Positions 39,486 to 59,273 of a stretch of DNA of 64,000 bases are shown here, one piece after another. The translations under genes were made by a program, and so were the position numbers. Within the stretch, counting starts at the first letter, position 1. Each line of letters opens with the position of its first letter. Source of the DNA: an uncultured Microthrixaceae bacterium (lineage in GTDB: Bacteria; Actinomycetota; Acidimicrobiia; Acidimicrobiales; Acidimicrobilacustridaceae); the NCBI GenBank assembly GCA_963788835.1, contig CAWBIF010000004.1, positions 476,581-540,580 on the forward strand, written 5' to 3'. The notes beneath the pieces are model-generated. The model saw only the letters and a list, made by a program, of their open reading frames with translations. It made no database searches and was not told where the DNA came from.

Positions 39486-39488
39486 CGG

Positions 39489-40062
39489 TCAGGCCTTGTC
39501 GGTGAAGTTCTCCCAGTAGCGGCTCGGGCGGGGCCCGCGCTGGCCCTGGTACTTGGACCCGACCTCGGCCGACCCGTAGGGCACGTCGGCGGGCGTGGTC
39601 ATGCGGATGAACGAGATCTGGCCGATCTTCATGCCCGGGTAGAGCGTGATGGGCAGGTTGGCCACGTTGGACAGCTCGAGGGTGAGCTGGCCGTCCCAGC
39701 CGGCGTCGACGAACCCGGCGGTCGAGTGGATGAGCAGTCCGAGTCGGCCGAGGCTGGACTTGCCCTCCAGCCGGGCGACGAGGTCGGTCGGCAGGGCGAC
39801 GCGCTCGAGGGTCGAGCCGAGCACGAACTCGCCGGGATGGAGGATGAACGCGTCCTCCTCGGCGATCTCGACCAGCTCGGTGAGCTCCTCGAGGTTCTGC
39901 TTCACGTCGATGTAGCCGAGCGTGTGGTTGCGGAACACACGGAAGTAGCGATCGATGTGCAGGTCGACCGACGACGGTTGGATGCAGGTGAGGTCGAGCG
40001 GGATCGATCACGATGCGCCCGGCGTCGAGCTCCTCGCGGATGGTGCGATCGGACAGGATCAT
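39489..40062 (-). CDS. dcd: dCTP deaminase, one frame break at ~40000
   Basis: ATG at 40062. [21 protein letters not shown] / [33 protein letters not shown]...[17 protein letters not shown]...[35 protein letters not shown]...ISFIRM.... 574 nt (1 mod 3). Confidence 0.9.
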
Positions 40063-40141
40063 CGGCGGGACGTTAGTGCAGGCCCGGTCGGGGCCCGTCC
40101 TACGATGACGCCGACGCCAGCGGCGCAGGGGGACACGCGAG

Positions 40142-41366
40142 ATGGACGGCGAGCAGGCGATCTGGAACCCGGCGGCCATCGACGTGGGGCTCGACGCCCG
40201 GGCGGCCACCTTCGAGAACCCGACGGGCGACCGGGGCGCCGGCGGCGTCGGCCCACGGGGGCCGCAAGGGCGCCCCCAGCCGGCGGATCCGGTCCGGCGA
40301 GCGGGTCGTGCTGGCCGACCTCGCCGGACCGGGCGTGATCCGCCACCTGTGGATGACCTTCCCGCCCGCCCGACCCGAGCAGATGCGGGGCCTGGTGCTC
40401 GAGGTGTTCTACGACGACCGCGACGAGCCGAGCGTGTCGGTGCCGTGCCTCGACTTCTTCGGTCTGCCCCACGGGCGCCCGGTGGCGTACCACTCGGCCC
40501 TGACCGCGGTGAACGAGGGGCGCGGGTTCAACAGCTACGTCCCGATGCCGTTCCGTCGGCGGGTGCGCGTCGAGGTGGTCAACGGCTCGCCCCGGACCAC
40601 GACGCTCTACTACCAGGTCGACTACACGCTGCAGGCCGAGCTCGATCCCGCGCTCGGCCACCTGCACGTCGCGTTCCGGCGCGAGAACCCGACCGTGGCG
40701 CGCCGTGACGTCGTGATCACCGAGGGCCTGCGGGGACCGGGTCGGTTCCTCGGCTGCGTGATCGGCGTGCGGGTGCTCGACGAGGGCGCGTGGTACGGCG
40801 AGGGCGAGGTGAAGGTGTACCGCGACGGCGACGACGAGCTCCCGACCATCTGCGGCACCGGGCTCGAGGACTACGTCGGCAGCGCGTGGGGGATGGGCCC
40901 GCACGCGACGCCCTACGGCGGCGCCCCGCTGGTCGTCGGCCGCGGCGACGTGACGAGCCCGCTCGGCGGCTCCCCCGACTTCGTCGGCTTCTACCGGTGG
41001 CACCTGCCCGACCCGATCATGTTCACGACCGACCTGCGCGTCACGATCCAGCAGATCGGCGCCGCCTTCTTCGGCGCCGGCCAGGAGGCCGAGCTGGCCG
41101 CCTACGAGCAGAGCCACCCCGTGGCCGGAGAAGGATGGATGCGCGACCTCGGACCCGGGCTGTTGGCCTGGGGAATCGTCGAGCGGGTGGACGACTACTG
41201 CGCCACCTCGTTCGTCTACTGCGCAGAGCCCCAGTCGGTCGCACGGGTCGATCTGGACGTGGCTCTGGCCGACATCGCCCGCCGCGACTACGAGCTGGCG
41301 TCGCCCTTCGAGCTGCTGGGCGGCGTCGCCCCGCCCGACCAGGCGGCGGTCCCGCCGCGGTCGTAG
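40142..41366 (+). CDS. DUF2961-family protein (GH172-like), one frame break at ~40248
   Basis: ATG at 40142. ...ATFENPTGDRGAGG / AHGGRKGAPSRRIRSGERVVLADLAGPGVIRHLWMTF...FFGLPHG...NSYVPMPF...LYYQVDY...WYGEGEVKVYRDGDDELPTICGTGLEDY.... 1225 nt (1 mod 3). Confidence 0.75.
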
Positions 41367-41397
41367 GCTCGCCGGCAGTCGATCCAGGGGGACGATC

Positions 41398-42223
41398 ATG
41401 GCGACCCAGACGAGCGTGGACTTCATGGATCCGGCCAACAAGGACTTCGTGTTGGCGACGTTGCAGGCCGAGATCGACCAGACCTTCGATCTGGTCGCGG
41501 ACCCGGCCCGCTGGGAGGCGCCGACCGCGTGTGAGGGCTGGGAGGTGCGCGACATCATCGGGCACCTCACCGATGCGACCGAGGGCTACTTCCCGGGCTT
41601 CGACATCGCCCGCAACGGCGGGACGCCTGACCACCGCTCGGCCTGGCCGGCATGGCGGTGCGGGCCGACGAGCACGCCCGGGCCTTCCGCAGCCTCTCGC
41701 GCGACGAGATGCTCGCTCGCCTCAAGGTCGATTCGGAGCGGGCGATGGCCATCTTCACGTCGCTCTCGGACGACGACTGGACCGGGCTCATCGTCTCGCA
41801 TCCGTACATGGGTCCGCTGCCCGCGATGTTCTACCCGATGTTCCAGCTGGTCGACTACACGGTGCACACGTGGGACATCCGCGAGGGCATCGGCCAGCCC
41901 CACGCGCTGTCGGGCGACGCCACCGATCTGCTGGTGCCGATCATCTTCATCCTCTGGCAGGCCACCGCCGACACCTCCTCGCGTGACCACGCCGTACACG
42001 GTGGGCGTGCACACGAGCGGCCGCAACGGCGGCGACATGCGCGTCGACGTGTCGAGCGAGGGCATGCAGTACGCGCCGGGCCCGATCGACGACTGCGCGC
42101 GCCATCCTCGAGCTCGACCCGGCCACCTTGGTGCTGACCGGCTACGGGCGGGTCAACGGCGGCACGGTCCGCGGCAACCGGCAGATGGCCAGCGACTTCA
42201 GGTCCCTGTTCTTCGCGATCTGA
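41398..42223 (+). CDS. Maleylpyruvate-isomerase-family mycothiol-dependent enzyme-like protein (DinB/TIGR03083-type), frame breaks
   Basis: MATQTSVDFMD...ARWEAPTACEGWEVRDIIGHLTDATEGY..., ...DDWTGLIVSHPYMGPLPAMFYPMFQLVDYTVHTWDIREGIGQ... (ORF 41652), end read as ...RQMASDFRSLFFAI*. Confidence 0.6.
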
Positions 42224-42233
42224 GAGGTCGGGC

Positions 42234-43798
42234 TTGGAGCGGACGATCCCCCGGCTGTTGCGGGCCGCGGTCGACGACGTCCCTGACCAGGTCTGGCTGC
42301 TGACCGACGACGCCGAGCACACCTACGCCGGCGCGCTCGACCAGATCGAGCGCGCCGCCGCCGCCCTGCGGTTCGCCGGCGTCAGGCGTGGGCGATCGCG
42401 TGCTCGTGACCGCCCGCAACACCGATCGCTACCTGCTGAGCTGGTTCGCCCTGATGGAGGTGGGCGCCGTCGCAGGTGCCGCTCAACCCGCAGAGCACCG
42501 AGGCCGAGCTGCCGGGGCTTCGTCGAGCAGGTGGCGCCGGCGGCCATCCTCACCGACGGCGCACTGGCTGGCGACGGTCGACGCCGCCGCGGGTCACCGC
42601 GGATTCGACGCGCCGCGGCGGACCGGACATCGGTCGCCTCGACGTGGACGAGATCTTCACCGCCGAGCCCGACGGCCACGGACCGGCCGACGTCGATCCG
42701 AGCGACGTGGCGGTGATGATCCCGACCTCGGGCACGACGGGTCGCTCGAAGCTCGTGATGCAGACGCACCTCGCCTACGTGATGGCGGGCGAGGGGTTCC
42801 CCTACTGGATGCAGCTCGACGCGACCGATCGGCTGATCACGTCGTTGCCGCTCTTCCACATCAACGCGCCCGCCTACTCGACGCTCGGATCGATCGCCGC
42901 CCGGGCCAGCCTGGCGCTGCTGCCGGGGTTCTCGGCCAGCGGGTTCCTCGACGCGGCCCGGCGGTTCGGCGCCACCGAGTTCAACTCCATCGGCGCCATG
43001 CTCGAGATCCTCATGCGCCAGCCGCGCCGGGACGACGACGCCGACAACCCGCTGCGCCGCTGCTACACGGGACCCACGCCCGAGCGCGACCGCCAGCTCG
43101 AGATCGAGGAGCGGTTCGGGATCGAGATCGTGTGCGGCTACGGGCTGTCCGAGTCGCCCTACGCGCTGATGTGGCGCCGCGGCGAGCGGCCCTACGGCAC
43201 GCTCGGGTCGGTCCGCCAGCACCCCGAGCTGGGCGAGGTCAACGAGGCGCGGGTGGTGGACGGCGGCGGCGTCGAGGTCGGGGACGGCGAGATCGGCGAG
43301 CTCGAGCTGCGCAACCCGGCCATCATGCGCGGCTACTACGAGATGCCCGACGAGACCGCCGCGGTCGTGCACGACGGATGGTTGCGCACCGGCGATCTCG
43401 TCAGCGACAACGGCGACGGGACCTACACGTTCGTCGGGCCGGGTCAAGGAGGTCATCCGGCGGCGGGGCGAGAACCTGTCGCCGGCCGAGGTCGAGGCCG
43501 CGCTCGAACGGCACCCCGACGTGGCCGAGGCCGCGGTCGATCGGCCGTTCCGTCCGAGCTGTCCGAGGACGACGTCAAGGCGTTCGTGCTGGCCGCGCCC
43601 GGACGCACGGTCGACCCGGCCGCGCTGCGGAGCTTCGCCGCCGAGCAGCTGGCCGCCTTCAAGGTGCCGCGCTACATCGAGGTGGTCGACGAGCTGCCGC
43701 ACGGACCCGACGGGCCGGCTGACCAAGCACCAGCTCCCCCTCGAGCGCACGCCGACGCAGAGGTGGACTTCGAGGCCGCGTCCGGTCAGGCTCGGTAG
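42234..43798 (+). CDS. AMP-dependent acyl-CoA synthetase/ligase, frame breaks
   Basis: TTG at 42234. ...VAVMIPTSGTTGRSKLVMQTH (AMP motif I), ...GYGLSESP..., ...WLRTGDLVSDNGDGTYTFVG / R.KEVIRRRGENLSPAEVEAAL...FKVPRYIEVVDELP.... Main piece is ORF 42476..43798. Confidence 0.8.
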
Positions 43799-44607
43799 AT
43801 GGACGGCGACGACGTGGCTGCACACCTGGATCGGCTCGTCCGACCCCGAGCACATCTCGGTGGCGGGCCGCGACCTGCCGGGCGAGGTCATGGGGAAGCT
43901 CACGCTCACCGAGCTGTCCTACCTGCTCGTCACCCGGCGAGAGCCGACACCCGGCCAGCGCCGCCTGGTCGACGCCGTGCTGGTGTCGCTGGCCGACCAC
44001 GGGCTCACGCCCGAGCGCGCTCGCCGACCCGACTGACCTACACGGGCGCGCCCGAGTCGATCCAGGGCGCGGTGGCCGCCGGTCTGCTGGGGGCGGGCAG
44101 CGTCTTCCTCGGCCCGACCGGTGACACCGCCCAGTTCCTCGCCGACGCGCTGGCGCTCGGCGGAGGCGCGGCCGAGCTCGACGACGACGAGCTGCGGGCC
44201 GATCGCCGCATCCGCGGTCGTGACGCGGCGCGCGGCCGGTCTGCGCGTGCCGGGGCTCGGCCACCCGGTGCACGGGACGGCGATCCGCGGACGCCGCGCC
44301 TCTACGAGCTGGCGGCCGCCGAAGGTCTGCTCGGTCCGCACCTGCGGCTGCTGGCGCTGGTCGCCGAGGCGCAGGCCGAGGCCAGCGGGCAACACCTGAC
44401 CGGTCAACGGCGCCGGGCGCCGGCGGGGCGGCGCTGCTCGACGCCGGCGTGCCGGTGTCAGCCGTCCGGGGCATGGCGTTGATCGCCCGGACGGCGGGAC
44501 TCGTCGCGCACCTGGTCGAGGAGGCCGAATCGCCGATCGGCATGCCGCTGTGGCTCGAAGTCGAACGCCGGGCGAACGAGGCCGAGCCACCCGGCGAGGG
44601 TGGCTGA
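43799..44607 (+). CDS. Citrate-synthase-superfamily citryl-CoA-lyase-like protein, frame breaks
   Basis: ATG at 43799 (frame break within the first ~15 nt). ...WIGSSDPEHISVAGRDLPGEVMGKLTLTELSYLLVTRREPTPGQRRLVDAVLVSLADHGLTP / ...LTYTGAPESIQGAVAAGLLGAGSVFLGPTGD... / ...VPGLGHPVH...DPRTPRLYELA... End read as ...MPLWLEVERRANEAEPPGEGG* (44605-44607). Confidence 0.6.
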
Positions 44608-44637
44608 GCCGCGCTCTGGCTCGTGCGGGCCGTGCGA

Positions 44638-44895
44638 TCAGGAAGCGGTGCGCACCCGCTGGTCGTCGCGCAGGTCGATGACCATGGGCTGGCTCTCGGG
44701 GACCCAGGCCTCGGTCTCGTCGTCCCACACGATCCAGCAGCCGTGGACCTCGTCCCACTGCGCCTTGTCATCGGGACGCACGGGCGGCTCGGGGATGGCG
44801 ATCGGGCCGTCGGCCGAGTCGGCCAGCGCGTCGGGAGAAGGCGCGGCGGCCGTGATGATGACGATCTGGTTGGGGGTGTGTCCGGTGGTTCCCAT
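44638..44895 (-). CDS. Hypothetical small protein (85 aa)
   Basis: Intact ORF. GGTAGGAGCTG lies immediately upstream of the ATG at 44895. No family recognised. Confidence 0.5.
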   Translation of the reverse strand: MGTTGHTPNQIVIITAAAPSPDALADSADGPIAIPEPPVRPDDKAQWDEVHGCWIVWDDETEAWVPESQPMVIDLRDDQRVRTAS

Positions 44896-45035: not shown

Positions 45036-45106
45036 GCGGGTGTAGTTCAGAGGCAGAACATCAGCTTCCCAAGCTGAGAACGCGAGTTCGATTCTCGTCA
45101 CCCGCT
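45036..45106 (+). tRNA. tRNA-Gly (anticodon CCC)
   Basis: GCGGGTG acceptor pairs with CACCCGC. D-arm TAGTTCAGAGGCAGAACA. Anticodon stem-loop CAGC-TTCCCAA-GCTG. T-arm GCGAGTTCGATTCTCGT. CCA is not encoded. Confidence 0.9.
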
Positions 45107-45113
45107 CTCTCTC
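45096..45113 (+). repeat. attL-like 18-nt direct repeat (tRNA 3' end plus 7 nt)
   Basis: CGTCACCCGCTCTCTCTC, identical to 52848-52865. Confidence 0.8.
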
Positions 45114-45672
45114 CGAAGTCGGCCTGTTTCCGCAGGTCAGAGCCCTGGTATGAGCTTTCGCGTGCCATGGCCGTCGGGCGGGATCGCACATCCATGGCAC
45201 ATGGCCCTGCTGCCGTCGGCCCCGGGAACAGTCTGGATGGGCTCGCCGCTGACCCGGTCCCGAACGCGAATGCCCCTACCGCCAGCGACCGCTGGAGCCA
45301 GCACAGGAGCAGCCGCCGGCCATGCTCCCTCCGAGGAACTGTTGGATCTGCCGTTCCTAGCGTCGGAGCACATCCCCGACAACGTCTCCGACTTCAGACC
45401 GAAGGTTGCAAGGGCAGCTTCGATGGGACTTCGACGCCGACGGTTGACACGGCTCCCGGACCCGCGCTCGGAGCGAGCCCCTAGCTGAAGTGCCGATGTG
45501 ATGCGGCTCTCTGTTGCATGCGCTGTGCATGGGTGGCGACAGACATCTGCATCCCGCGACCCAGATGGTGGATGGCGCCGAGGGACGTCGGCTGTTTGAG
45601 CCTCGACCGCTTCGGCCTTCGACCTCGAAATCGAGGGCATTCGAATCAACGGTGTGCAAGGGAGATGGACTC

Positions 45673-46230
45673 ATGGCCGAGCTGAACGGCTCCAAGACGA
45701 GCGACGGTGTCGACAGCGGCGTGACGCGTCTGGCTACCGCGACGTTGCGGAGTGCACACGGCATCGAGATTCGGTCAGCAACACTCGCGGACGGCGCCGA
45801 AATCGGCATGATGTTCGCCCGCTGCAGTAGGGACGCCCGTTACGGTCGGTTCCTGGCTCCACTGGCGACGCTTCCAGCCGATCACCTCGCGCAGGTGCTG
45901 GCAGCGCAACCCGGGACCGAGTCCTGGCTCGGTGTCACGACGAGCCACCCGGCGATGATCGTGGCGTTGGGGAGCTGGGTCGCCTGCGGCGACGAGGCAG
46001 AGCTGGCCGTGCTGGTCGAGGACCAGTGGCAACGCCACGGAGCCGGGACGGCCCTCTTGCAGGTAATGGCCGACCGTACGCTCGCGGCCGGCTTCCGTCG
46101 GCTGACCGCCACCGTGCTCACCGAGTCTCGTCACGTGCTGGGCATGCTTCGTGCCGCATTCGGTGAGCTCTCGATCGAGACCGACGGGTACCTGTGCCGG
46201 GTCACGATCGAGCGCGGCCAAGGTGGGTGA
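45673..46230 (+). CDS. GNAT-family N-acetyltransferase
   Basis: ATG 45673 preceded by AAGGGAGA. ...AELAVLVEDQWQRHGAGTALLQVMADRTLAAGFRRLTATVL (Q/RxxGxG/A acetyl-CoA motif). The upstream part of ORF 45514..46230 lacks an RBS. Confidence 0.8.
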   Translation: MAELNGSKTSDGVDSGVTRLATATLRSAHGIEIRSATLADGAEIGMMFARCSRDARYGRFLAPLATLPADHLAQVLAAQPGTESWLGVTTSHPAMIVALGSWVACGDEAELAVLVEDQWQRHGAGTALLQVMADRTLAAGFRRLTATVLTESRHVLGMLRAAFGELSIETDGYLCRVTIERGQGG

Positions 46231-46444
46231 TCGGGGAGGTTCTTCCGGATCGCCCTGGTCCTGGCGCGCTGCAGTGGCCGATCAGCGCGGTCGCGACCTG
46301 ATCGCCGATGCCGAGTCTTGGCGGCTGGCGCGCTCCTCGTCGGTTGGTCCGCTCGTGCGAAGGTCCCCGGGGAAGCGTCGGATTTGGCCCCGACTGCAGG
46401 AGCTCGTGAGGAGAGTCATGAAGCGAGCCATCGGCGCGTGGCCT

Positions 46445-49432
46445 TCAACCGTTGAGCCGGTCGGCTATCGCGCCCTGGACGTGGGCCACGATGGCTTGCC
46501 CCCGCATGGCTGCGCCCCGTGCCTCGGCATCGGAGAGGCGGTCGGGTCCGAGCGCGTCGCGAAGTTGTTCGAGGATCGCACCCACTCGGCGGAGGTCGGA
46601 TGCCTCGATGGGCAAAGCGAGCTCGGCTGAGGCCACGCGAACCGCGCCGTGGATCACCGCCGCGTCCTCGTAGTCGCCGCGTTGCGCCAGCACGCTCGCC
46701 ACGTGACGCATGGTCAGCCACTGGTTGGCCCAGTCGCCTGCCCGGTACCAGGTGTCGATCACCTCGGCGGCCAGGCGCAACGCCGCGTCGAGGTCGCCGC
46801 GGCGTCCAGCCAACGACACCAGCTCGGTTCGGGCAAAGGCGACGAGCCAACGATTGTTGACCGCCGCGGCACAGCCGATCGACTCCTCGAGCATCGAAGC
46901 GGCACGGCCGGGGTCAAGGGATTCGAGTGTGATCGCACGGGCGTAGAGCGCCGAGGCCAGCGAGGTCGGGTGCTGGGTGCGCCGTGCAATGGTGAGTGCC
47001 TCCTCGGCCAGCTGGAGGCTCTCCTCGGCGCGCGCCGCGCTGGCCAAACCGACCGATGCCATGTACAGGGCGTGCACGAGTCGGGCCTCGTCTGTGCTCG
47101 TCCTCGCCGCGTGCACCATCCGTTGACAGACGGTTGCGGCCTGGTCGGCGAGGCCTCGGTAGTAGAAGACGTTGCCCATCGTCCTCCAAGGAAGGCCAGA
47201 CGGGGCGACCCCCATCTGATACTCGAGTGCCAGCGACCGTTCGGCGAGCGCCAGCGCCCCTCCGAGATCGCCACGCACGAACCTCCCGTAGCTCGCCGTG
47301 GCCAGAGCCATCGGCAAGAGGGGGTGTGTCTCGGCGCCTTCCATGGCGATGCTGGCCTCGGCCCAGGTGAAGAGTTCGTAGCGCATGTGGCGGAACGCGA
47401 ACTCACGGGGCTCGACCACCAGGCGCAGTGCGGCATCAGCGTCGCCCAGTCCGAGGGCCCGACGGTGAGCCAGCCGCAGGTCGTCGAAGGCGTCCTCCAT
47501 TCGGCGAGCCCACTGGGCCTCGTCAGGGCCATCGAGGCCGGATCCCGCCTCCTCGGCTGTCACGACCGCATGGGCCATGTGGCACTGCTGTAGCTCGGCG
47601 GTGTTACCCGCGGCGTCGAGGCGCGCTCGGCCGAACTCCCGCAGGGTCTCCAGGAGCGAGAAGCGGGTGGGTGACCGACTCGTGTCGGCCATCACCATGG
47701 ACTTGTCGATCAGCGCCGGTAGGAACGTGGTCGCGGTGGCCCCGAAGGCATCGTCGACGCACACGCGCTCGACGTCCGCGGCGGTGAACTTCCCGGCGAA
47801 GATCGAGAGCCGGTCGAACAGTGACTGCTCGGCCCCGTCCAACATCTCATAGGACCACTCGACCGTGGCCAGGAGCGTCTGATGGCGTGAGTCACCGCGG
47901 CTGCCGGAGGTCAGCAGAGTGAACCGCTCATCAAGCCGGTTCGCCAGCTCTTTCGGCGTCATCGAGCGCACAAGTGGCGCGGCGAGCTCGATGGCGAGGG
48001 GGACCCCGTCCAGGCGCCGGCAGATCTCCACTATGAAGGGGGCGGCCTCCGCGGTCAGCGAGAAATTCGGATGGGCGGCGGCCGCGCGCTCCACAAATAG
48101 TCGGACGGCCGGCGACGTGAGCGCTGCGCCTGGGTCGAGTTCGTCGACGGACGGGAGCTCGAGTGGCCCGACCGGCCACACCGATTCCCCGTAGGAGGCC
48201 AGCGGCTCACGACTCGTAGCCAGCACCTGGACACCTGGGCATCCGCGGAGGATCGTCTCCGCGATCGGGCCGACGGCACCCAGCACGTGCTCGCAGTTGT
48301 CCAGCACGACCAACAGGCGCCGGGGCTTGAGCACCTCGACGAGCCCGACCAGCGTGGACGGCTCCCGGCGGGGTTGCACGTCGAGAGCGGCGGTGATTGC
48401 GTCTGCTGCCAACCCAGACTCTCGGACCGCCGTCAGATCGCAGACCCACACCCCATCGGGATACGTCTCGGCCACCATGGCTGCCAAGCCGAACGCGAGT
48501 CGCGTTTTGCCGACGCCGCCGGGTCCGGTCAGGGTCAGTAGGCGCGCGGTGCCTAGACGTTCGGCCAACTGAGCGACTTCGAGGTCGCGCCCGATGAAGC
48601 TGTTGACCGGCGCCGGAAGGTTCCCCCGTCCGACGGCACCATCGGACGAAGATGTGACGGCCGCCGCGGAGCCGACGGTCGAGTCCGCATCGAGGCCCGG
48701 ATCCTGGAGAAGGATGCGGCTTTCGAGATCGACGAGCGCCGCCGATGGTTCCAGACCTAGTTCGCTCCCGAGCTCCGTTCGGAAGCGCTGGTAAACTCTG
48801 AGCGCTTCGGGCTGACGTCCGCAGTGGTAGAGCGCAAGCATCTGTTGAGCCCGGAACCGCTCGCGTAGAGGCCACTCGATGATGCAGCGCTCCACGATCT
48901 CGATCACCGCGGCGTCGTCGCCAAGCGCGAGGCGGGCATCGATGAGTCCCTCGAGCGAGCGTTGGCGGATCTCCTCCAAGCGTGTGGCTTCGGCCTGCAG
49001 TGCGAGGTCGTCGACGAACTCCCCGAACGCCCGGCCGCCACGCCACCAGCCGAGCCCCTCCAGGAGGAGGTCAGCGGCCTTGGCGGGATCTGTTGCAAGC
49101 ACCCGCAAGGCATCGGCGACCTGACGCTCGAAGCGGGAGGCGTCGATCTCGTCGGACTCGACTCGCAGGACATAGCCCCCTGGTCTGGTCTGCACGCGCT
49201 CTTGCTCGGGGCCGAGGTCGCTTCGCAAGCGGGACACGTAGCTCTGGACCGTTCCGGACGCGCGCAACGGCGGCTCGTCGCCGAAGAGCGCGTCGACAAG
49301 CTGGTGGACGGAGACGACCACATTGCGATGGAGCAGGAGCGTGGCCAGCAACAGCCGCCGACGCGACCCCCGCACCGTCACCAGACGGTGCTCGGAGACA
49401 ACCTCCAACGGCCCGAGGACCAGGAACTCCAT
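46445..49432 (-). CDS. AfsR/SARP-family regulator (OmpR-type wHTH, BTAD, NB-ARC-type ATPase and TPR domains), 995 aa
   Basis: ATG 49432 preceded by GGGAG. MEFLVLGPLEVVSEHRLVTVRGSRRRLLLATLLLHRN...YVSRLRSDLG...GGYVLRV (wHTH); ...ALYHCGRQPEALRVYQRFRTELGSELGLEPSAAL (BTAD); LLTLTGPGGVGKTRLA (P-loop), ...LLVVLDNCEHV (Walker B-like); repetitive helical C-terminal half. The whole 3 kb is uninterrupted. Confidence 0.9.
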   Translation of the reverse strand: MEFLVLGPLEVVSEHRLVTVRGSRRRLLLATLLLHRNVVVSVHQLVDALFGDEPPLRASGTVQSYVSRLRSDLGPEQERVQTRPGGYVLRVESDEIDASRFERQVADALRVLATDPAKAADLLLEGLGWWRGGRAFGEFVDDLALQAEATRLEEIRQRSLEGLIDARLALGDDAAVIEIVERCIIEWPLRERFRAQQMLALYHCGRQPEALRVYQRFRTELGSELGLEPSAALVDLESRILLQDPGLDADSTVGSAAAVTSSSDGAVGRGNLPAPVNSFIGRDLEVAQLAERLGTARLLTLTGPGGVGKTRLAFGLAAMVAETYPDGVWVCDLTAVRESGLAADAITAALDVQPRREPSTLVGLVEVLKPRRLLVVLDNCEHVLGAVGPIAETILRGCPGVQVLATSREPLASYGESVWPVGPLELPSVDELDPGAALTSPAVRLFVERAAAAHPNFSLTAEAAPFIVEICRRLDGVPLAIELAAPLVRSMTPKELANRLDERFTLLTSGSRGDSRHQTLLATVEWSYEMLDGAEQSLFDRLSIFAGKFTAADVERVCVDDAFGATATTFLPALIDKSMVMADTSRSPTRFSLLETLREFGRARLDAAGNTAELQQCHMAHAVVTAEEAGSGLDGPDEAQWARRMEDAFDDLRLAHRRALGLGDADAALRLVVEPREFAFRHMRYELFTWAEASIAMEGAETHPLLPMALATASYGRFVRGDLGGALALAERSLALEYQMGVAPSGLPWRTMGNVFYYRGLADQAATVCQRMVHAARTSTDEARLVHALYMASVGLASAARAEESLQLAEEALTIARRTQHPTSLASALYARAITLESLDPGRAASMLEESIGCAAAVNNRWLVAFARTELVSLAGRRGDLDAALRLAAEVIDTWYRAGDWANQWLTMRHVASVLAQRGDYEDAAVIHGAVRVASAELALPIEASDLRRVGAILEQLRDALGPDRLSDAEARGAAMRGQAIVAHVQGAIADRLNG

Positions 49433-49472
49433 TCTCTCAGGCTCCCATGTATCGGCCACCGGCACAGTACGA

Positions 49473-49516
49473 CGCATCCACCTTGCAACCCGTATGCATG
49501 ACGGCTGCAACGTCCT
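49473..49516. promoter_or_regulatory. Four (C/T)GCA motifs phased at exactly 11 bp in the SARP/tautomerase divergent intergenic region
   Basis: CGCA 49473, TGCA 49484, TGCA 49495, TGCA 49506. Units are CGCATCCACCT / TGCAACCCGTA / TGCATGACGGC / TGCAACGTCCT. Function is inferred only. Confidence 0.3.
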
Positions 49517-49572
49517 CCGAGGAGCCTGCCCCCATGCGAGACACCCTGTCCGCCGTAACAAGGAGACCATCG

Positions 49573-49800
49573 ATGCCATTCGTCAACGTCAAGCTCATCC
49601 AAGGCGTGTTCGACGCCGAGCAGAAGCAGGACATGATCACCAAGCTCACCGACACCATGGTGTCGATCGAGGGCGAAAACATGCGCCCCGTCACCTGGGT
49701 GGTGATCGAGGAGGTGGCCAGCGGCGAGTGGGGCATCGGCGGCAACCGCCTCACCACCGCCGATGTGAAGGCCCTCGCAGCCGGCGTGACGGTTGGCTGA
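49573..49800 (+). CDS. 4-oxalocrotonate tautomerase-family protein (75 aa)
   Basis: AGGAG lies 7 nt upstream of ATG 49573. MPFVNVKLIQGVFDAEQKQDMITKLTDTMVSIEG... (Pro at position 2; size and pattern typical). Confidence 0.85.
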   Translation: MPFVNVKLIQGVFDAEQKQDMITKLTDTMVSIEGENMRPVTWVVIEEVASGEWGIGGNRLTTADVKALAAGVTVG

Positions 49801-49903
49801 CCGTCCGCCAAGCATTCGGGACGGGTGCCGCGCTCGGCACCCGTCCCTCCCGATTCGTTGCTGGGACTCACACCCAGCCGTGCCTGACCGCTAAGGGGCC
49901 GAG

Positions 49904-50836
49904 TTGAAGTTCGGAGCCCATTTGCCGCTGATGGATTTCGGCGGTCATCCATACACGATGAGACATCTCGCCGGCTACGCCCGGGGAGCAGTCGAGTTGG
50001 GGTTCGAGACGCTCGCAGCGAATGACCATCTCGCCTTTGGGTCGCCATGGCTCGACGGCCCGACCGCGCTGGCCTCGGTGATCGGTGACTCCGGGTCGAT
50101 GAAACTTGCCACGACGGTGTCGCTCCCGGTGGTCCGTGGCCCAATGCAGGTGGCGAAGGCCATGGCCGCGATCGACCGACTCTCCGGCGGCCGAGCCGTG
50201 GTCGCGGTGGGGGCTGGCTCGTATCGGCCTGACTACGAGATCGCGGGCATCGACTTCGGCGAGCGATGGAAACGTCTGGACGAGGTCGTGCAGACCATGC
50301 GGGCTCTCTGGGGCGTGGACCAGAAGCCGTTCGTAGGCCGCTTCTACTCGACGGAGGGCATCGATTTGCTGCCGAAGCCCGCACAGCTGGGCGGTCCACC
50401 GATCTGGATCGGCAGTTGGGGATCAGACGCCGGCCTGCGTCGCACCGCCCGCCTCGCCGACGGATGGCTGGCATCGGCCTACAACACCACGCCCGCCGAG
50501 TTCGCGGTCGCTTGGGCCGCGCTCCAGCAGCTCCTCTCCGACGAGGGCAAGGACCCCGATACTTTTCCGAACGCCCTGGCGACAATGTGGTTCCACATCA
50601 CCGACGACCCCGACGATGTCGACCAGATCTTCCGGCACCGGCTGGCACCAACCATCCACCGGCCTGAAGCGATCCTCAGGGAACGGCTCCCCGTGGGTCC
50701 GGCGGCAGCCTTCGCAGACAAGCTCAGCGCCTTCCGGGACGCCGGCGTCCAACAGGTGCTCATCTGGCCCGTCACAGACGAGCTGCACCAACTCGAGCTG
50801 TTCTGCCAGCAAGTGCTTCCCCTCCTCACCAACTAG
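49904..50836 (+). CDS. Luciferase-like monooxygenase (LLM-class, flavin/F420-dependent) oxidoreductase
   Basis: Intact 310-aa ORF (TTG start). MKFGAHLPL...LGFETLAANDHL...RAVVAVGAG...PPIWIGSWGSDAGLRRTARLADGWLAS.... Confidence 0.85.
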   Translation: MKFGAHLPLMDFGGHPYTMRHLAGYARGAVELGFETLAANDHLAFGSPWLDGPTALASVIGDSGSMKLATTVSLPVVRGPMQVAKAMAAIDRLSGGRAVVAVGAGSYRPDYEIAGIDFGERWKRLDEVVQTMRALWGVDQKPFVGRFYSTEGIDLLPKPAQLGGPPIWIGSWGSDAGLRRTARLADGWLASAYNTTPAEFAVAWAALQQLLSDEGKDPDTFPNALATMWFHITDDPDDVDQIFRHRLAPTIHRPEAILRERLPVGPAAAFADKLSAFRDAGVQQVLIWPVTDELHQLELFCQQVLPLLTN

Positions 50837-51004
50837 TGCAGCCGGACTCAACCACTCCACGGGTGCCACCGGCGCACTGTCCTGCGCACCAGGCGCGAGG
50901 TCTCGCGACCGCTGTGGACGGACATGATGTGAGGCGAGGCACCGTCACGTTTGAATCGCCACAATGATCCACCGGCCAGTAACCGCGCCGAGTGAGGAGG
51001 CCTG

Positions 51005-52009
51005 TTGACGCACCCTGAGCCTCCTCGCTTCCCGGGGCAATTCGCAGCCGCGCCCGCCGCCGCGGCCAACGGGCCCGCGCTTGCGGTCGACCACCTGACC
51101 AAGCGCTTCGGTGAGAGAACCGCGTTCTCCGAGGTCTCGTTCGAAGTCGCTCATGGTGAGGTGTTCGGGTTCTTGGGTCCGAACGGCGCAGGTAAATCAA
51201 CCGCAGTGCGTACTCTCGGCACGCTCATCACGCCGACCTCGGGCTCGGCGACCGTCGCGGGCATCCCACTTTCCCAGGAGAACGGAGTGGAGATCCGCCG
51301 ACGCATCGCGGTGATGCCCGAGGCGCCAGGGCTTTATCTTCGACTGACCGTGACTGAGAACTTGGAGTTCTTCGCCGATCTCTACGGTTTGCATCAGGCA
51401 GGGACGCGCATCAGTGAGGCACTCGACGCGGTCAATCTCGGAGATCGTGCCGCAGATGTGTGTGGGGGTCTTTCGAAGGGGCTTCGCCAGCGGGTGGGAC
51501 TAGCTCGGACGATGCTGTGCGACCCGGAGATCATGTTCCTCGACGAGCCGACATCGGGCCTCGACCCAGTGGCTGCGCGCGAGGTTCACGAGTTGATCAT
51601 CGGCCTGAGGCAGAAAGGAGTGACGATCTTTCTCACTACCCACCGGCTTGACGAAGCCGAGAAGTTGTGTGATCGGGTGGCCTTCTTGAATACGACGCTG
51701 CGTAGCATCGGTCGTCCGGCGGAGCTCCGACGGCAGCTGTTCACGCGCGCACTTCTCGTCAAGACCGCTGCGTCGATCGGCCATCCCGACCAGCTCTTTG
51801 CCGCGATCGGAGGTGTTGAGAGTTGGCGCTCCGATGATCCGGGCTCCTACGTGCTCTCCGTATCCGATCCCGGCGTCGTTGCACCCGAAGTGACGCGGGC
51901 ACTCGTTGGCGTCGGGGCCGACGTCCTGTTCATCGGCGAGGCGCAACATTCGCTCGAAGACGTTTATCTCGAGCTGATCAGCGACGATGTCGAGGGCCGC
52001 AAATCATGA
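51005..52009 (+). CDS. ABC transporter ATP-binding protein (ABC-2/DrrA-like exporter type)
   Basis: GAGGAGG upstream of TTG 51005. Walker A GPNGAGKST, Q-loop, signature LSKGLRQRVGLA, Walker B IMFLDEPTSGLD, H-loop TTHRLDEAE. The stop overlaps the permease start. Confidence 0.9.
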   Translation: MTHPEPPRFPGQFAAAPAAAANGPALAVDHLTKRFGERTAFSEVSFEVAHGEVFGFLGPNGAGKSTAVRTLGTLITPTSGSATVAGIPLSQENGVEIRRRIAVMPEAPGLYLRLTVTENLEFFADLYGLHQAGTRISEALDAVNLGDRAADVCGGLSKGLRQRVGLARTMLCDPEIMFLDEPTSGLDPVAAREVHELIIGLRQKGVTIFLTTHRLDEAEKLCDRVAFLNTTLRSIGRPAELRRQLFTRALLVKTAASIGHPDQLFAAIGGVESWRSDDPGSYVLSVSDPGVVAPEVTRALVGVGADVLFIGEAQHSLEDVYLELISDDVEGRKS

Positions 52010-52743
52010 GGGGGCTCGACGCGCAACGCGTCCGCGCGGTCGTGCGCAAGGAGCTGAGGGAATACCGGCGGAAACGGTCCATCGTCGTGACGATGGCGGT
52101 GCTTCCGATCGTCTTTCTCATCCAGCCGACGCTTGCCGTCTTCCTCGCACCGGCCACCTCCGATGACACCTACTACCGTGTTCCGCTCCTGCTCCTTCTC
52201 CTGATTTCGGTCATCATCCCCTCGACTCTCGCCGCATATTCGGTGGTCGGCGAGCGTGAGCAGGGCACTCTCGAGCCGTTGCTCACCACGCCAATTCGCA
52301 GACAAGAGTTCATCGCGGGCAAGGCGGCCGCAGTCATGATCCCCTCAGTCGCCGTTGCGTACTCGGTGTACGCGCTTTTCCTCGGCGTCGTTCGGCTGTT
52401 CGCCAAACCGGCAACGTCCAACGCAGTGTTCCACCAGGGCCCGGTTCTCGTCGCGCTGATCCTCTTCACCCCTCTGCTGGCCGGCTGGGCCGTCGTGGTC
52501 GGAATGGCGATCTCTGTTCGTGCGAACGAAGTCCGCGTCGCGCAGCAGCTCGGGACCCTCGCCAGCTTTCCGCCCTTCGGTGTGGTCGTCCTGTTCGCGG
52601 TCGGCGTCATCCACCCGACACTCACGGTCGCGATCCTGTTGGCGGTCGGACTGTTGGCGATCGACCTGCGCGCCCTACGCATCGTCGCGAAGATGTTCAA
52701 CAGGGAACGTCTCGTCACCGGAACAACCGCCACCCGATCTTGA
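52006..52743 (+). CDS. ABC-2-type transporter permease
   Basis: Intact 245-aa ORF with about six hydrophobic spans, translationally coupled to the ATPase (ATGA overlap at 52006-52009). Confidence 0.8.
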   Translation: MRGLDAQRVRAVVRKELREYRRKRSIVVTMAVLPIVFLIQPTLAVFLAPATSDDTYYRVPLLLLLLISVIIPSTLAAYSVVGEREQGTLEPLLTTPIRRQEFIAGKAAAVMIPSVAVAYSVYALFLGVVRLFAKPATSNAVFHQGPVLVALILFTPLLAGWAVVVGMAISVRANEVRVAQQLGTLASFPPFGVVVLFAVGVIHPTLTVAILLAVGLLAIDLRALRIVAKMFNRERLVTGTTATRS

Positions 52744-52847
52744 AGAAGTGGGCACCACGCCTTCGGACGGAGAAGTTCCCCCCGGAGCTAGATCGTGCGC
52801 TGAGAGGCGGCCCGCCATCGCACACTGATCGCGCATCCGCAGTCATC

Positions 52848-52865
52848 CGTCACCCGCTCTCTCTC
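52848..52865 (+). repeat. attR-like 18-nt direct repeat
   Basis: CGTCACCCGCTCTCTCTC, identical to 45096-45113. Confidence 0.8.
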
Positions 52866-52870
52866 GCCCG

Positions 52871-52889
52871 GTTCGTTCTCGTCGTGACC
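52871..52889 (+). repeat. Degenerate second copy of the tRNA-Gly T-arm/acceptor 3' half
   Basis: GTTCGTTCTCGTCGTGACC compared with tRNA 45086-45102 GTTCGATTCTCGTCACC. Confidence 0.5.
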
Positions 52890-52910
52890 TGGCCGAACGC
52901 AGCATCGTCC

Positions 52911-54851
52911 TCACGGTGTGGTCAAACTCGGTCGGCGTGGCGTCGTCGTGTGGGGCCCGCGACCCTCCGGCGTCGTGGTCGGTTCGAACGCGGGCGAGGA
53001 GGGCCGAGCAGTCGACCAGAGCAGGCATTGGATGCTCGCCGCGGCCGCCAGGAGGCCGACGAGCGCGATGGGCAGGAGCAGCCGACCCCCCGTCGCCAGG
53101 TCGGCCGGGTAGTGCGCCGGCATGCACATGTCGTGGCAGAGGTTGGTCGGTCCCATGGGATAGGTGACCCACAAGCAGAGCGCGACCTGGATGGCGACGA
53201 ACGCCCCGAGCAGCCGATCCGACAACGCGAACGCGGCGCCGGACGCGAGTGTGACGGCGAGCAACAGGACGATCGCGTACGAGCCGTTGAACGTCGAGGT
53301 GAGCGCGATCGGCGGGCCGAACTCGACGATCACCCACACGACCAGGGGCACGAGCGTGGCGGCGCCGAGCACGTACACCGAGCGAGGGATGCGACGCCGG
53401 AGCAGCAGTAGCGGCGAGGCCAGCAGCAGCAGCCCACCACCCCAGGCGACCGCGCTCTCCTGGGTCCTGAGGATCCGCAGTCGCAGCCCCAGCCCGTCGT
53501 GGTCGGTCCCGAGCAACAGCCGGACGTCGAAGAGCGCGGCGATGTTGTCGTAGCGATGCCGAAGCCATCCACGCACGCCGAGCGCGGCGTAGCGCTCGCG
53601 CATGAGATGCAGCAGGGAGCCGTGCTGCGGTCCCATGACGCCGGCGAGGTGCCACTCGAGCTCGGCCGAGCCCGTCGTGTTGAACCACGTGCGGTAGATG
53701 ATCCAGGGCACCGCCATCGCCGCCGCCCCCACCGCCGCCGCCCCGAGCCGGCGCCACAGTCCCGTCGGGATGCCCAACGCAACCACGACGACCGCCAACG
53801 AGAGTGCGGCGTACGCGCCGCCGGGGTGGGCCATGAGCGAGGCTGCCGCGAGCAGCCCGATGATCCCCCAGTCGGTGGTGTCCATCGCGTGCGTCCCCAC
53901 ATCGAGCAGCAGCGCGATGGCGAGCAAGCTCAGGGCCGCGCTGTACAGCTTGGGGTACACGAAGATCACATTCGGCACGAGGAAGCCGGTGAACGTCACG
54001 AGAGCCCACGCGCCGAGCAAGCGGCGTCGTCGGAGTCCGACGGCCACGAAGACCGCCACCATGGCGACGACCGAGAGGCTATCGACGACCGCCGAGGACA
54101 CCTGGTAGCCGAACGAGCGGTCGGCGCTCAACGCGTAGATGGGCATGGTCACCGCGGCCTGCAACGGAGGCCGGTCGGCCAGCGGCCAGCCGAGGGCCTT
54201 TGGTCGCAGGTCCTCGCGCGCGTCGGCCCGTGTCTCCCACACCCAGGGGAAGAGGTTGTCGGCGGTGCCGAACACCGAGCGCTCGGACAACAGCGCCGAG
54301 TCGGCCATGCCCCCGTGCAGGGTCAGCATCGACATGCACATGACCGCGGTGGTCACGGCGAGCAACACCACCGCCGCCACCCGCGCCAGGGTGCGCAGCG
54401 CCAGTCCGCTCGCGGTGGTGATCGCCACCGCCGCAACCACGTAGGCGACGCCGGCGGCGATCCGCCCCAACGTCGGGTCTGCGACCCACGCCCACCACAC
54501 GAGCCAGCTCACGAGGGCGCCCGCGCCGAGAACCCCTGCGAGTCCACGGACGAGGCCCACGTCGGCACGCCGGCGCCACACCACCGCGCCGATCGCGAAG
54601 CCGGGGGCGAACATGACGACCGAGCCGGCCAGCGCTGTCATCGACAGGCCAGCGGCGCCTCGCAGCGCCCCCGAGTTCCGGTAGACGTGGGTCCCCAGCC
54701 ACACCCCGACCGGCGCCAGCCCAAGGCAGACGCCGAGCGCGGCCCGGACAGCAGGCCGGGGCGATGGCGCACTCACCGCCGCATCATACGAGTGGCGCGC
54801 GTCGGCCTCGGACCGCCAAGGTCGTGGCGCTGCTAGCGTCCGGGCGATCAC
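52911..54851 (-). CDS. Hypothetical polytopic membrane protein (about 14 or more hydrophobic spans); true start probably internal
   Basis: Uninterrupted 646-aa ORF dominated by hydrophobic segments. No family recognised; a GT-C-like fold is only a guess. The annotated GTG lies 13 nt from the divergent gene's start, so the start is doubtful. Confidence 0.55.
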   Translation of the reverse strand: MIARTLAAPRPWRSEADARHSYDAAVSAPSPRPAVRAALGVCLGLAPVGVWLGTHVYRNSGALRGAAGLSMTALAGSVVMFAPGFAIGAVVWRRRADVGLVRGLAGVLGAGALVSWLVWWAWVADPTLGRIAAGVAYVVAAVAITTASGLALRTLARVAAVVLLAVTTAVMCMSMLTLHGGMADSALLSERSVFGTADNLFPWVWETRADAREDLRPKALGWPLADRPPLQAAVTMPIYALSADRSFGYQVSSAVVDSLSVVAMVAVFVAVGLRRRRLLGAWALVTFTGFLVPNVIFVYPKLYSAALSLLAIALLLDVGTHAMDTTDWGIIGLLAAASLMAHPGGAYAALSLAVVVVALGIPTGLWRRLGAAAVGAAAMAVPWIIYRTWFNTTGSAELEWHLAGVMGPQHGSLLHLMRERYAALGVRGWLRHRYDNIAALFDVRLLLGTDHDGLGLRLRILRTQESAVAWGGGLLLLASPLLLLRRRIPRSVYVLGAATLVPLVVWVIVEFGPPIALTSTFNGSYAIVLLLAVTLASGAAFALSDRLLGAFVAIQVALCLWVTYPMGPTNLCHDMCMPAHYPADLATGGRLLLPIALVGLLAAAASIQCLLWSTARPSSPAFEPTTTPEGRGPHTTTPRRPSLTTP

Positions 54852-54864
54852 AGGGGGGTGGGCC

Positions 54865-56725
54865 GTGGTCCGTAGATTCGTGTCGGTGGCGTTGGCTGGT
54901 TGTGTGTTCGCGGCGCTCGCTTCGGTGATGGTGGCGGTCGCGCCGGCGGCGGGGGCGGCGGGGGTGGTGACGACCTACCCGTTGCCGGTCGCCGGGACCG
55001 TGCAGGGCGTCGCGACCGGTCCGGACGGCAACGTGTGGTTCACCGAGGACAACACGGCCACGGTGGCGCAGATCGGTCGCGTGACCCCTGACGGCACGTT
55101 CACGATGTTCCCCCTGCCGGCGGGCGCGGATCCGTTCGGCATCACGGCGGGCCCGGACGGCGCGATGTGGTTCACCGACTTCGGGACGGCGTCGTTGGGC
55201 AAGGTCACGATGGCGGGGACGATCTCGGAGGTCCCGATGACGGGCACCGTGGACGGGACACCGACCGCGCTGAAGGCGTATTCGATCACGGCCGGCCCGG
55301 ACGGGAACCTGTGGGTCACGAGCGATGCGAACTTCGTAGCTCGGGTGGACCCCACCGGTGCCTACACGGCGTTCGACGTCGGCTCCGACAGCTGCGACGC
55401 CGGGTTCTGTGTGTCCACCGAGGTGGGGGCCCTCGTGACCGGGCCCGATGGGCGCATCTGGTTCTCGGATGACGTCGTAGATGAGGGACCTCACTCGGGC
55501 TCCGTTGCGTTGTGGGTGGGATCCGTGGACACGTCCGGCAACCTCGGTGTGTTCGTGTATGCCGGCAGCCCGGAAGCGGGATCCGGCATCACGGTGGGAC
55601 CGGACAGCAACATCTGGTTCCTCGGACAATGGGGCAACGAGGCGCTGTACACCCCGACGACGGGAGCATCGGAGTTCGGGGCCGTGTCCTATTCGCTGCC
55701 GTTCCCGGAGCCTTCGGGCTATCCGGTCGACATCGCGTCCGGTCCCGACAGCCGTCTGTGGATCACACAGGACCCGGGCAACGTGATCGACGCGATCACG
55801 ACGTCGGGCACCGCCTCGGTCTACGCCCTGCCGTCGGGCACCGACCCGACCTACATCACCCAGGGTTCCGACGGCAACATGTGGTTCTCCGGCGTCGGGG
55901 TGATCGGCAAGATCACGACCGACACCGGGGCGTCGCCCCCCGCGGCGCCCCAGTCGGTGACCGCGGTCGCGGGCGACAGCTCGGCGTCGGTGTCGTTCGC
56001 GCCACCAGCCAGCGACGGCGGCTCACCCATCAAGACCTACACGGTCACCTCGTCGCCCGGTGGCATCACCGCCTCCGGCTCAGGCTCGCCGATCCTCGTG
56101 CCCGGACTCACCAACGGCGTCTCCTACGACTTCACGGTCACCGCCACCAACGGTGTCGCCACCGGCCCACCCTCATTGCCGTCGAACCCCGTCACCCCGA
56201 CGGCGCTGCAGATGTCGCCCAAGCCCTTGCACCAGGGCTGGGTCGGCCAGTCCTACGGGCGCGCCCTCGCCGCCAGGGGCGGGCTCGTGCCCTACACCTT
56301 CAGCCTCGATTCGGGCGTCCTACCGCCAGGCCTCGTCCTGTCGGCCGACGGCAGGATCACCGGCACCCCTACCGCCACCGGCAACTACGCGTTCACCGCG
56401 CGTGTGACCGACTCGGCCAGCCCCGCCGGCAGCGTGACCTCGACCTACACCATCGACATCGGCGTCGGGCTCTACCCGCACACCCTGCCCACCGGCACCC
56501 ACGGTCAGGCCTACTCGCACGCGCTCGAGCGCGCAGGGCGGCACCGGCCCCTACGTCTTCACGCAGACCGGCGGGACGCTGCCACCCGGGCTGGGCCTCT
56601 CTTCGGACGGCACCGTCGCGGGCATGCCCTCGATCGCCGGCCAATGGACCTTCACCGTCGAAGTCACCGACTCCTCCGGCCCTGCTCTCACCTCCACCCG
56701 CAACATCACCATCGCGATCACCTGA
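54865..56725 (+). CDS. Secreted Vgb/streptogramin-lyase-like beta-propeller protein with FN3 and two Ig-like (He_PIG-type) domains; one frame break at ~56525
   Basis: GTG 54865 with AGGGGGG upstream. Signal peptide MVRRFVSVALAGCVFAALASVMVAVAPAAGAAG. Seven blades (GPDGNVWFTE, GPDGAMWFTD, GPDGNLWVTS, GPDGRIWFSD, GPDSNIWFLG, GPDSRLWITQ, GSDGNMWFSG). FN3 (PAAPQSVTAVAGDSSASVSFAPPASDGGSPIKTYTV...). Then ...YTFSLDSGVLPPGLVLSADGRITGTP... and ...YVFTQTGGTLPPGLGLSSDGTVAGMP...ITIAIT* (third frame, stop 56723-56725). 1861 nt (1 mod 3). Confidence 0.75.
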
Positions 56726-56755
56726 CGGCTGGGAAGCTTCCAGCTCGACTGCTCG

Positions 56756-57817: not shown

Positions 57818-57925
57818 GGCGGCGACGATACCGAGCACGTCGAACGACCTGCCCACCTGGGTTGCACTAAGTTTCGGAGTTAGTCTCGATAAGTCGCTCG
57901 ACGTCATGTCCGGGGGGATCGGCGC

Positions 57926-59257: not shown

Positions 59258-59273
59258 GGCTCGGAGAAGATCA

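Follow-up and report, generated by a model that had tools for sequence, protein, structure and literature searches.

Why should a block of accessory genes lie between two copies of a tRNA 3' end when it carries no recombinase of its own? We addressed this question at a locus in a 64,000-nt stretch of DNA from an uncultured Microthrixaceae bacterium (contig CAWBIF010000004.1, positions 476,581 to 540,580 of the forward strand, assembly GCA_963788835.1), henceforth referred to as the window; coordinates given without another label are window positions. An earlier note, made by a model from the letters alone, had described the segment as an integrase-less island bounded by attachment-site (att) repeats at the 3' end of tRNA-Gly(CCC). 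We find this description supported by integrase-bearing loci at the same tRNA in relatives, by a near-conspecific contig (L005), by arm-type signatures at the island ends and by a shift in GC content, both overall and at third codon positions (GC3). On balance we read positions 45114-52847 as what is left, after decay and loss of the integrase, of one integrative element (or of several in tandem) that inserted site-specifically at tRNA-Gly(CCC).

An exact direct repeat of the tRNA 3' end

The tRNA gene, the two repeat copies and a further, degenerate copy are arranged as follows:

45036-45107 (ARAGORN) or 45036-45106 (Rfam RF00005, 68.3 bits), plus strand: intact tRNA-Gly(CCC), the putative integration target, on the attL side
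45096-45113, plus strand: left copy of the exact 18-nt repeat CGTCACCCGCTCTCTCTC, made of 11 nt from the tRNA 3' end followed by 7 nt of trailer
52848-52865, plus strand: right copy of the exact 18-nt repeat CGTCACCCGCTCTCTCTC, attR-type, in direct orientation 7.75 kb downstream
52870-52889, plus strand: degenerate copy of the T-arm/acceptor 3' half, a possible older att scar (13 of 14 T-arm positions, one gap)

The repeat was confirmed as previously described, with two exact copies, both on the plus strand and both made up of 11 nt of tRNA and 7 nt of flank. These are the only copies of CGTCACCCGCTCTCTCTC in the 64-kb window, both direct (shuffles gave an expectation of 0.26 sites with up to 3 mismatches), and no copy was found in 108 related loci. 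Local alignment of the left and right repeat regions showed that identity breaks off sharply at 18 nt on both sides. We then considered the 12-nt tRNA-end core CGTCACCCGCTC across 99 tRNA-anchored sequences (98 loci plus the window), and found 7 exact copies in 384 kb downstream of the tRNA vs. 0 in 354 kb upstream. Given that such copies occur solely downstream, they can be regarded as att-related and not as background. We consider it reasonably probable that the 18-nt repeat marks the former att sites of a site-specific integration. A scan against Rfam returned the tRNA as its only match.

The degenerate second copy, from which the earlier note had raised the possibility of two successive integrations, is present, its matching part being 52871-52883 (GTTCG-TTCTCGTC). 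Its score is reached by 0.16% of 35-nt windows, so that statistically the match is weak, and its reading as an older att scar is plausible but weak.

A near-conspecific contig is differently occupied at the same site

L005 is an independent short-read contig that matches positions 52894-54833 at 96% and 56754-61684 at 94%. Read in the orientation of the window, it carries an integrase element, an exact 42-nt tRNA-Gly attR, a short flank that resembles 45108-45141, a TetR gene and a gene for a 238-aa protein (spanning 1.5 kb together), and a gene for a 646-aa protein. The 7.7-kb cargo of the window was found neither in L005 nor in any of the 108 loci. Divergence between the window and L005 starts and ends about 30-40 nt past the two repeat copies, with homology resuming at 52894, beyond the degenerate copy. 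The two strains thus differ by a replacement of the repeat-bounded interval, with tandem accretion at the site. The 238-aa gene of L005 was considered as a diverged allele of the ABC-2 permease of the island and rejected on comparison.

Aligning relatives in search of an empty tRNA-Gly site, as had been proposed, thus yielded a site that lacks the cargo and is otherwise occupied, and no exact empty one. The earlier note had also held that identical content beside this tRNA in all relatives, with no compositional shift, would tell against an island; the cargo was absent from all 108 loci and GC was shifted (see below).

Integrase-bearing elements at the same tRNA in related genomes

Using the 72-nt tRNA as query against a single genome from each species, we obtained 97 genome stretches (L007-L103), nearly all from Acidimicrobiia/Microthrixaceae metagenome-assembled genomes (MAGs), many of them 'MFD'. 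The tRNA-Gly(CCC) sequence was identical in all 97. In about 20 of the 97 species a tyrosine integrase of one type (named L001-type after the contig L001; 44-97% identity) lies 65-1830 nt past this tRNA (e.g., L001 11470-12857, L085, L024, L073, L098, L064). L001/L019, from a Microthrixaceae MAG, is syntenic with 31023-41321 (i.e., about 10 kb upstream of the site) at about 83% nucleotide identity; it carries the identical tRNA, then a 381-aa tyrosine integrase at +171, then genes of no known function, the L001 cargo having neither PHROG nor Pfam names. Wherever attR could be mapped, it was a 42-47-nt tRNA fragment starting from the anticodon stem/loop (at +4642 in L079 and +5866 in L097; 42 nt in L005), and those of L079 and L097 fit the anticodon-centred class of the Islander survey (PMC4383910).

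The linkage of dcd (dCTP deaminase) to tRNA-Gly(CCC) is widely conserved, sometimes with a GH172 gene between the two, which is the arrangement in the closest relatives of the window (GH172 at 40308-41366; relatives at 81-86%). Taken together, the sequence comparisons show that the tRNA-Gly(CCC) site past dcd serves one integrase family as a major hot spot for integration in genomes from across the uncultured Acidimicrobiia. The stretch between GH172 and the tRNA is about 3.7 kb long in the window (41348-44895) and in L023, with an MDMPI-like open reading frame (ORF), an AMP-binding enzyme, a citrate-synthase-like gene and an 85-aa gene, and it is missing from L001. A homologue of the 85-aa gene lies between dcd and GH172 in L001 and L023, and adjoins the tRNA in L053, L070 and L085.

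In L079 (1109-5870; the same in L017) a 4.6-kb island extends from the tRNA to the 47-nt attR and contains nothing but the remains of an integrase and a gene of SARP/BTAD-NTPase-TPR type (991 aa), whose product is 35% identical to the SARP-family regulator of the window; we take it as an independent decayed island with similar cargo. We asked whether SARP genes are recurrent island cargo, and set the idea aside as anecdotal: L079/L017 and possibly L023 and L031 make 3-4 of about 97 loci, not clearly above a rough chance estimate. In L033 (about 1920-2030) and L091 (about 2645-2770, both tRNA-oriented), two tandem units of 54-58 nt follow directly past the tRNA, each with the tRNA 3' end copied over its last 15-16 nt (TCTCGTCACCCGCTC). 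The flank past the last unit of L091 matches the tRNA flank of L014, which itself has no such units. These units may be miniature att scars or tRNA-fragment repeats.

Arm-type sequences at the island ends

Next to each repeat copy, on its island side, lies a sequence resembling the arms of L001-type elements:

45114-45205, plus strand: element-type left arm ('F'), with the motif CAGGTCAG at 45133-45140 and the box GCACATCCATGGCACAT at 45186-45202
52813-52847, plus strand: right-arm boxes abutting the right repeat copy, with 26 of 35 positions matching, ungapped, the GGCACATCC repeats of the L005 right arm

The left arm is about 85% alike to the tRNA-downstream flank of L070 and L023. The association of its motif with integrases was quantified by scoring C[AT]GGTCA within 40 nt past the tRNA: it was found in 12 of 16 integrase-bearing loci vs. 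10 of 54 loci without integrase or, counted the other way, an integrase was present at 12 of 22 motif-bearing loci vs. 4 of 48 motif-less ones (odds ratio 13, p = 5e-5). The four integrase-bearing exceptions carry variant motifs. That 10 of the 22 motif-bearing loci have no integrase means that remnants of such a kind are common. The motif is not found in the native flank beyond attR in L079 and L097, which implies that it was brought in by the element. The alternative that CAGGTCAG is a native tRNA trailer was largely rejected on these two grounds (i.e., it tracks the integrase and is missing from both native flanks), although a diverged look-alike of CAGGTCAG in L071, which has no integrase, leaves some doubt about its origin from the element.

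In the left arm of the window the motif lies at +25, compared with +11 to +13 in intact members. There it sits within a hairpin of very high stability (z = -4.6 to -6.9), which in the window and in L070 has decayed (z about 0). The 17-mer box GCACATCCATGGCACAT is found at +79 in the window, at +75 to +79 in L023 and L070 and, among integrase-bearing loci, at +66 to +79 (L098, L064). An exact copy was also detected on the right arm of the element in L005, some 110 nt ahead of the L005 attR. We infer that this distribution is what would be expected of arm-type protein-binding sites on both arms of attP.

At the right end, the alignment to the L005 arm scored 30, compared with 18.1 +/- 2.4 for shuffles, and 0 of 500 shuffles reached 30. 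In L005, about 124 nt separate the arm boxes from ...CGTCACCCGCTC; in the window, by contrast, the boxes directly adjoin CGTCACCCGCTC. Direct comparison of the left and right arms of the window gave only a common 12-mer with one mismatch, estimated as not significant.

Assembly errors and the search for a recombinase

The quality of the assembly bears on any claim of absence. The DnaK, DnaJ, GrpE and Fer4/CCG proteins of L001 match positions 31000-39500 in several adjacent pieces and in different frames, with dnaK split at about 33740 and about 34566. As essential genes cannot all be pseudogenes, the assembly must carry indel errors, and it is probably a long-read MAG. On the same comparison, the seeming frameshifts left of the tRNA (42388-44600), in the genes for the AMP-binding enzyme and the citrate-synthase-like protein, should not be taken for decay. 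Because of these errors, absences at the level of ORFs were rechecked by searches that do not depend on the reading frame.

The statement that the island holds no integrase, excisionase or transposase withstood all the searches made. A Pfam search (E <= 10) of all ORFs near both island ends gave no such gene, and tblastn of the relatives' integrases against the window gave no match. We also built a profile hidden Markov model (HMM) of 12 integrases that target tRNA-Gly(CCC) and searched it against the six-frame translation of the whole 64-kb window; the best hit (E = 0.35) fell outside the island, whereas the degraded integrase remnant in L079, used as a positive control, was found at 1.7e-13. 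The interval 45107-45800, which includes the stretch that the earlier note had proposed to search (45107-45672), was negative by Pfam (E <= 10), tblastn and the family HMM. A transposon origin of the repeat was rejected, there being neither terminal inverted repeats nor a transposase.

Composition and cargo of the island

The island contains six genes:

45514-46230, plus strand: GNAT-like acetyltransferase ORF (Pfam Acetyltransf_1 E = 8e-4, below the curated cut-off; NCBIfam Pat-like E = 9e-7)
46445-49579, minus strand: AfsR/SARP-family regulator with winged-helix, BTAD, STAND NTPase and TPR repeats (Pfam and NCBIfam)
49576-49800, plus strand: small protein of the 4-oxalocrotonate tautomerase (4-OT) family (Pfam Tautomerase E = 8e-14; TIGR00013)
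49904-50836, plus strand: F420-type luciferase-like (LLM) oxidoreductase (Pfam; TIGR03619)
51005-52009, plus strand: DrrA-like ABC ATPase (Pfam, NCBIfam)
52006-52743, plus strand: ABC-2 permease (Pfam, NCBIfam)

The gene list proposed from the letters alone (i.e., GNAT, AfsR/SARP, tautomerase, LLM oxidoreductase and ABC-2 exporter) was borne out by Pfam and NCBIfam, with a weak match for the GNAT, whose true start is probably near 45673. The functions of the cargo are probably in small-molecule sensing, detoxification and efflux, and not in mobility. An anti-phage defence role for the SARP/STAND gene and the ABC genes was considered and dropped, PADLOC having returned nothing specific.

None of the 226 stretches of 7.7 kb has a lower GC content than the island (0.664; median 0.703). 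For the right half, which the earlier note had judged A/T-richer by eye, the computed GC is 0.647, in agreement with that impression, and the most AT-rich part of the island is formed by the ABC ATPase and ABC-2 permease genes (51005-52743). GC3 of the island genes is 0.72-0.81 (ABC ATPase 0.72, ABC-2 permease 0.81, GNAT-like ORF 0.81), the tautomerase excepted (0.91), compared with 0.90-0.95 in the flanking backbone genes. Tetranucleotide deviation at the island exceeds 1 standard deviation solely at 50.5-53.5 kb, over the ABC genes. The strongest tetranucleotide deviation in the window lies elsewhere, at 6000-11500 (L1 distance up to 0.47 vs. a mean of 0.24), and coincides with an ORF of 1093 aa (6742-10023, minus strand; GC at first codon positions 0.52, GC3 0.96).

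Relatives of individual cargo genes were found in other settings. The divergent SARP-tautomerase pair is conserved in four JGI contigs (L105-L108; SARP 62-68% and tautomerase 81-88% identical at the amino-acid level), with different neighbours each time and no integrase in any of them; in L108 it adjoins tRNA-Lys(TTT). This conservation suggests that SARP and tautomerase form a regulator-target module. The LLM gene has relatives at 81-91.5% nucleotide identity in three unrelated contexts (L003, L004, L104), in which homology is confined to 49891-50846 and breaks off no further than about 13 nt from the start and the stop codon; the LLM gene behaves as a single-gene module. In L003, an IS481-family transposase lies upstream of the LLM relative.

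Variable DNA beyond the repeat-bounded island

Variability continues past the right repeat copy:

52911-56886, no single strand: variable DNA outside the repeat-bounded unit, with a gene for a 646-aa membrane protein (minus strand) and a Vgb_lyase-family gene (plus strand)

The 646-aa membrane protein has only two real homologues, one of them on L005 at 97% identity, and a scan of contigs with this protein found nothing; it is nearly strain-specific. The Vgb_lyase-family gene (54865-56886), which encodes fn3 and He_PIG domains, is missing from L005; that contig has 5 kb of other genes in its place (L005 4990-9899; a MimR/GerE regulator, an aldo-keto reductase, an NAD-binding protein, DUF1275 and a THAP4-like protein). 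In L071, the periplasmic-binding-protein gene that corresponds to ORF 57926-59257 (homology from about 57860) lies just 3.4 kb past the tRNA. The absence of the Vgb_lyase gene from L005 and the spacing in L071 together imply that the whole of 45108 to about 56750 is variable, the repeat-bounded island being its tRNA-proximal part.

Alternative explanations and a proposed history

Several observations weigh against reading the segment as a decayed remnant of an integrative element. The right repeat copy holds 11 nt of tRNA, compared with 42-47 nt in intact family members, and the 6-7 nt shared past the tRNA end (TCTCTC) are unexplained by a simple anticodon-loop crossover followed by deletion. 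The likeness of the left arm to L023 and L070 could, from the alignments, mean vertical inheritance instead of import by an element. The cargo looks like a mosaic whose modules have relatives in unrelated contexts and need not have come as one unit. Finally, a precise insertion predicts the junction ...CACCCGCTCTCTCTC joined to GCCCGGTTCGTTCTCG right after a complete tRNA, and the exact empty site (tRNA...CGCTCTCTCTC joined directly to GCCCGGTTCG...) was not recovered, with L005 differently occupied; a 24-mer across the predicted attB/attR junction had no match in JGI metagenomes.

The main alternative is an element that can still be mobilised, akin to the cis-mobilizable elements (CIMEs), a concept that covers integrative conjugative or mobilizable elements (ICEs/IMEs) which have decayed to the point of lacking integration and transfer genes while keeping attL and attR (PMC5704250). 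The 18-mer would then be a complete att core, with crossover in the T-stem/3' end of the tRNA, and an integrase supplied in trans or a co-integrating relative could move the island. Such a core would account for the sharp limits of identity around the 18-mer and for the 7 nt included past the tRNA. Islands with T-stem crossover moreover classically have 16-20-bp repeats at the 3' end of a tRNA (1836 such islands vs. 2083 anticodon-centred ones in Islander; PMC4383910), short 15-16-nt tRNA-end copies exist in other genomes of the lineage (L033, L091), arm-type boxes are found at both island ends, and strain-level presence/absence suggests recent turnover. Yet all family members with a mapped attR use the 42-47-nt fragment from the anticodon stem/loop, there is no integrase in the 64-kb window, the post-tRNA hairpin has decayed here (z about 0 vs. 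-4.6 to -6.9), and neither a second copy nor an attP junction turned up in any collection searched, so we hold continued mobility to be decidedly unlikely. We regard as unlikely, if somewhat less so, a composite variable region in which the 18-mer is left from an earlier element and cargo was acquired piecemeal, or swapped by homologous or illegitimate recombination anchored on the tRNA. The modular cargo fits such a history (SARP-tautomerase in 4 other contexts, the LLM gene in 3, with homology limited to the gene), as do the difference in composition between the island halves, the variability that runs past the repeat to about 56750, and a left arm whose similarity to L070 (about 85%) exceeds that to the conspecific L005 (about 68% over 34 nt), which suggests imported DNA. 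It is harder to reconcile with a difference from L005 that begins and ends within about 30-40 nt of the repeat copies, with ends that both look like element arms, and with the lack of insertion sequences, transposases or terminal inverted repeats in the segment or at its ends. A chance match, or an artefact of an error-prone long-read MAG, is very improbable: the assembly does contain many indel errors (dnaK, dnaJ, grpE and others are split across frames) and the repeat includes a (CT)4 run, but an exact 18-mer would essentially never be expected by chance, its overlap with the tRNA 3' end has the orientation and position of an att site, exact tRNA-end copies occur only downstream across the 99 tRNA-anchored sequences, and the right-hand junction region is borne out, at 96% identity, by L005, which comes from short reads.

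The remnant of an integrative element, which we favour, would have arisen as follows. An element would have integrated by tyrosine-recombinase crossover within the tRNA gene, whose 3' part would have been regenerated from the element's own attP; a regenerated tRNA gene and a displaced fragment are what mark the ends of such islands (PMC4383910). The integrase would later have been lost. The same probably happened to the greater part of the displaced tRNA fragment. The arrangement in L005 suggests that about 124 nt were deleted, so that the arm boxes became joined to ...CGTCACCCGCTC, which would leave only 11 nt of tRNA at the right end. The cargo would be a mosaic of the SARP-tautomerase regulator module, the F420-type LLM oxidoreductase and a DrrAB-like exporter. 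Given that the anticodon-loop crossover region is missing at the right end and that no integrase lies nearby, the island is most likely fixed now. Of the two fates named in the earlier note (i.e., a fixed fossil, or dependence on a recombinase supplied in trans), we thus favour the fossil, since attR holds 11 nt of tRNA and not 42-47 nt.

A more far-reaching proposal would place the island among numerous derivatives that have no integrase and stem from a family of tRNA-Gly(CCC) elements, phylum-wide in uncultured Acidimicrobiia; they would be exchangeable between strains via integrases in trans or via tRNA-anchored recombination. We consider this unlikely; if true, such derivatives would shuttle SARP-type STAND regulators and efflux/detoxification cassettes through soil populations.

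Comparison with known systems

Classical pathogenicity islands, such as the Yersinia high-pathogenicity island at tRNA-Asn and the pathogenicity islands of E. coli 536, have direct repeats of 16-20 bp at tRNA 3' ends; they occur in Proteobacteria, carry virulence cargo and have, or formerly had, P4-type integrases beside the tRNA. The island described here likewise has accessory cargo bounded by a short direct repeat (18 bp) made of the tRNA 3' end. It shares with the tRNA islands catalogued by Islander (PMC4383910) an intact tRNA gene at one end, a direct-orientation tRNA 3'-end fragment at the other, and accessory, compositionally deviant cargo whose presence varies among close relatives. 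By contrast, the displaced fragment is very short here (11 nt of tRNA), identity runs 7 nt beyond the gene, and the integrase gene required by the Islander filters is missing. Integrase-based finders of this kind would miss such cases, and the present one can aid the annotation of islands in MAGs; it also draws attention to regulator and efflux cargo that varies between strains of an abundant soil lineage.

Like CIMEs (PMC5704250), the island has lost its integration genes (no integration or transfer genes were found in it), keeps att-like repeats at both ends, and lies at a hot spot that is also used by related integrase-bearing elements, with tandem accretion seen in L005. It differs in that CIMEs were defined in Firmicutes ICE/IME systems with mobilization shown experimentally; moreover, the attR of this island looks truncated compared with functional family members, the anticodon-loop part being missing, and no conjugation or mobilization genes are known for the L001-type family. 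With L001-type elements themselves it shares the target tRNA, the motif CAGGTCAG and the box GCACATCCATGGCACAT about 79 nt past the tRNA, and the degraded member L079/L017 has a SARP-type cargo gene as well. Unlike these elements, it has no integrase within 2 kb of the tRNA, its motif is at +25 and not at +11 to +13, its hairpin is decayed, its attR holds 11 and not 42-47 nt of tRNA, and nothing aligns beyond the 18-mer.

By itself, the locus is an ordinary decayed genomic island of a known kind, CIME-like by anatomy. Its main value lies in the context, a tRNA-Gly(CCC) hot spot marked by one integrase family and by attP-arm signatures, with about half of the signature-bearing sites having lost the integrase. 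The most useful by-product of the comparison is that it outlines a family of tRNA-Gly(CCC) elements that is widespread in uncultured Acidimicrobiia.

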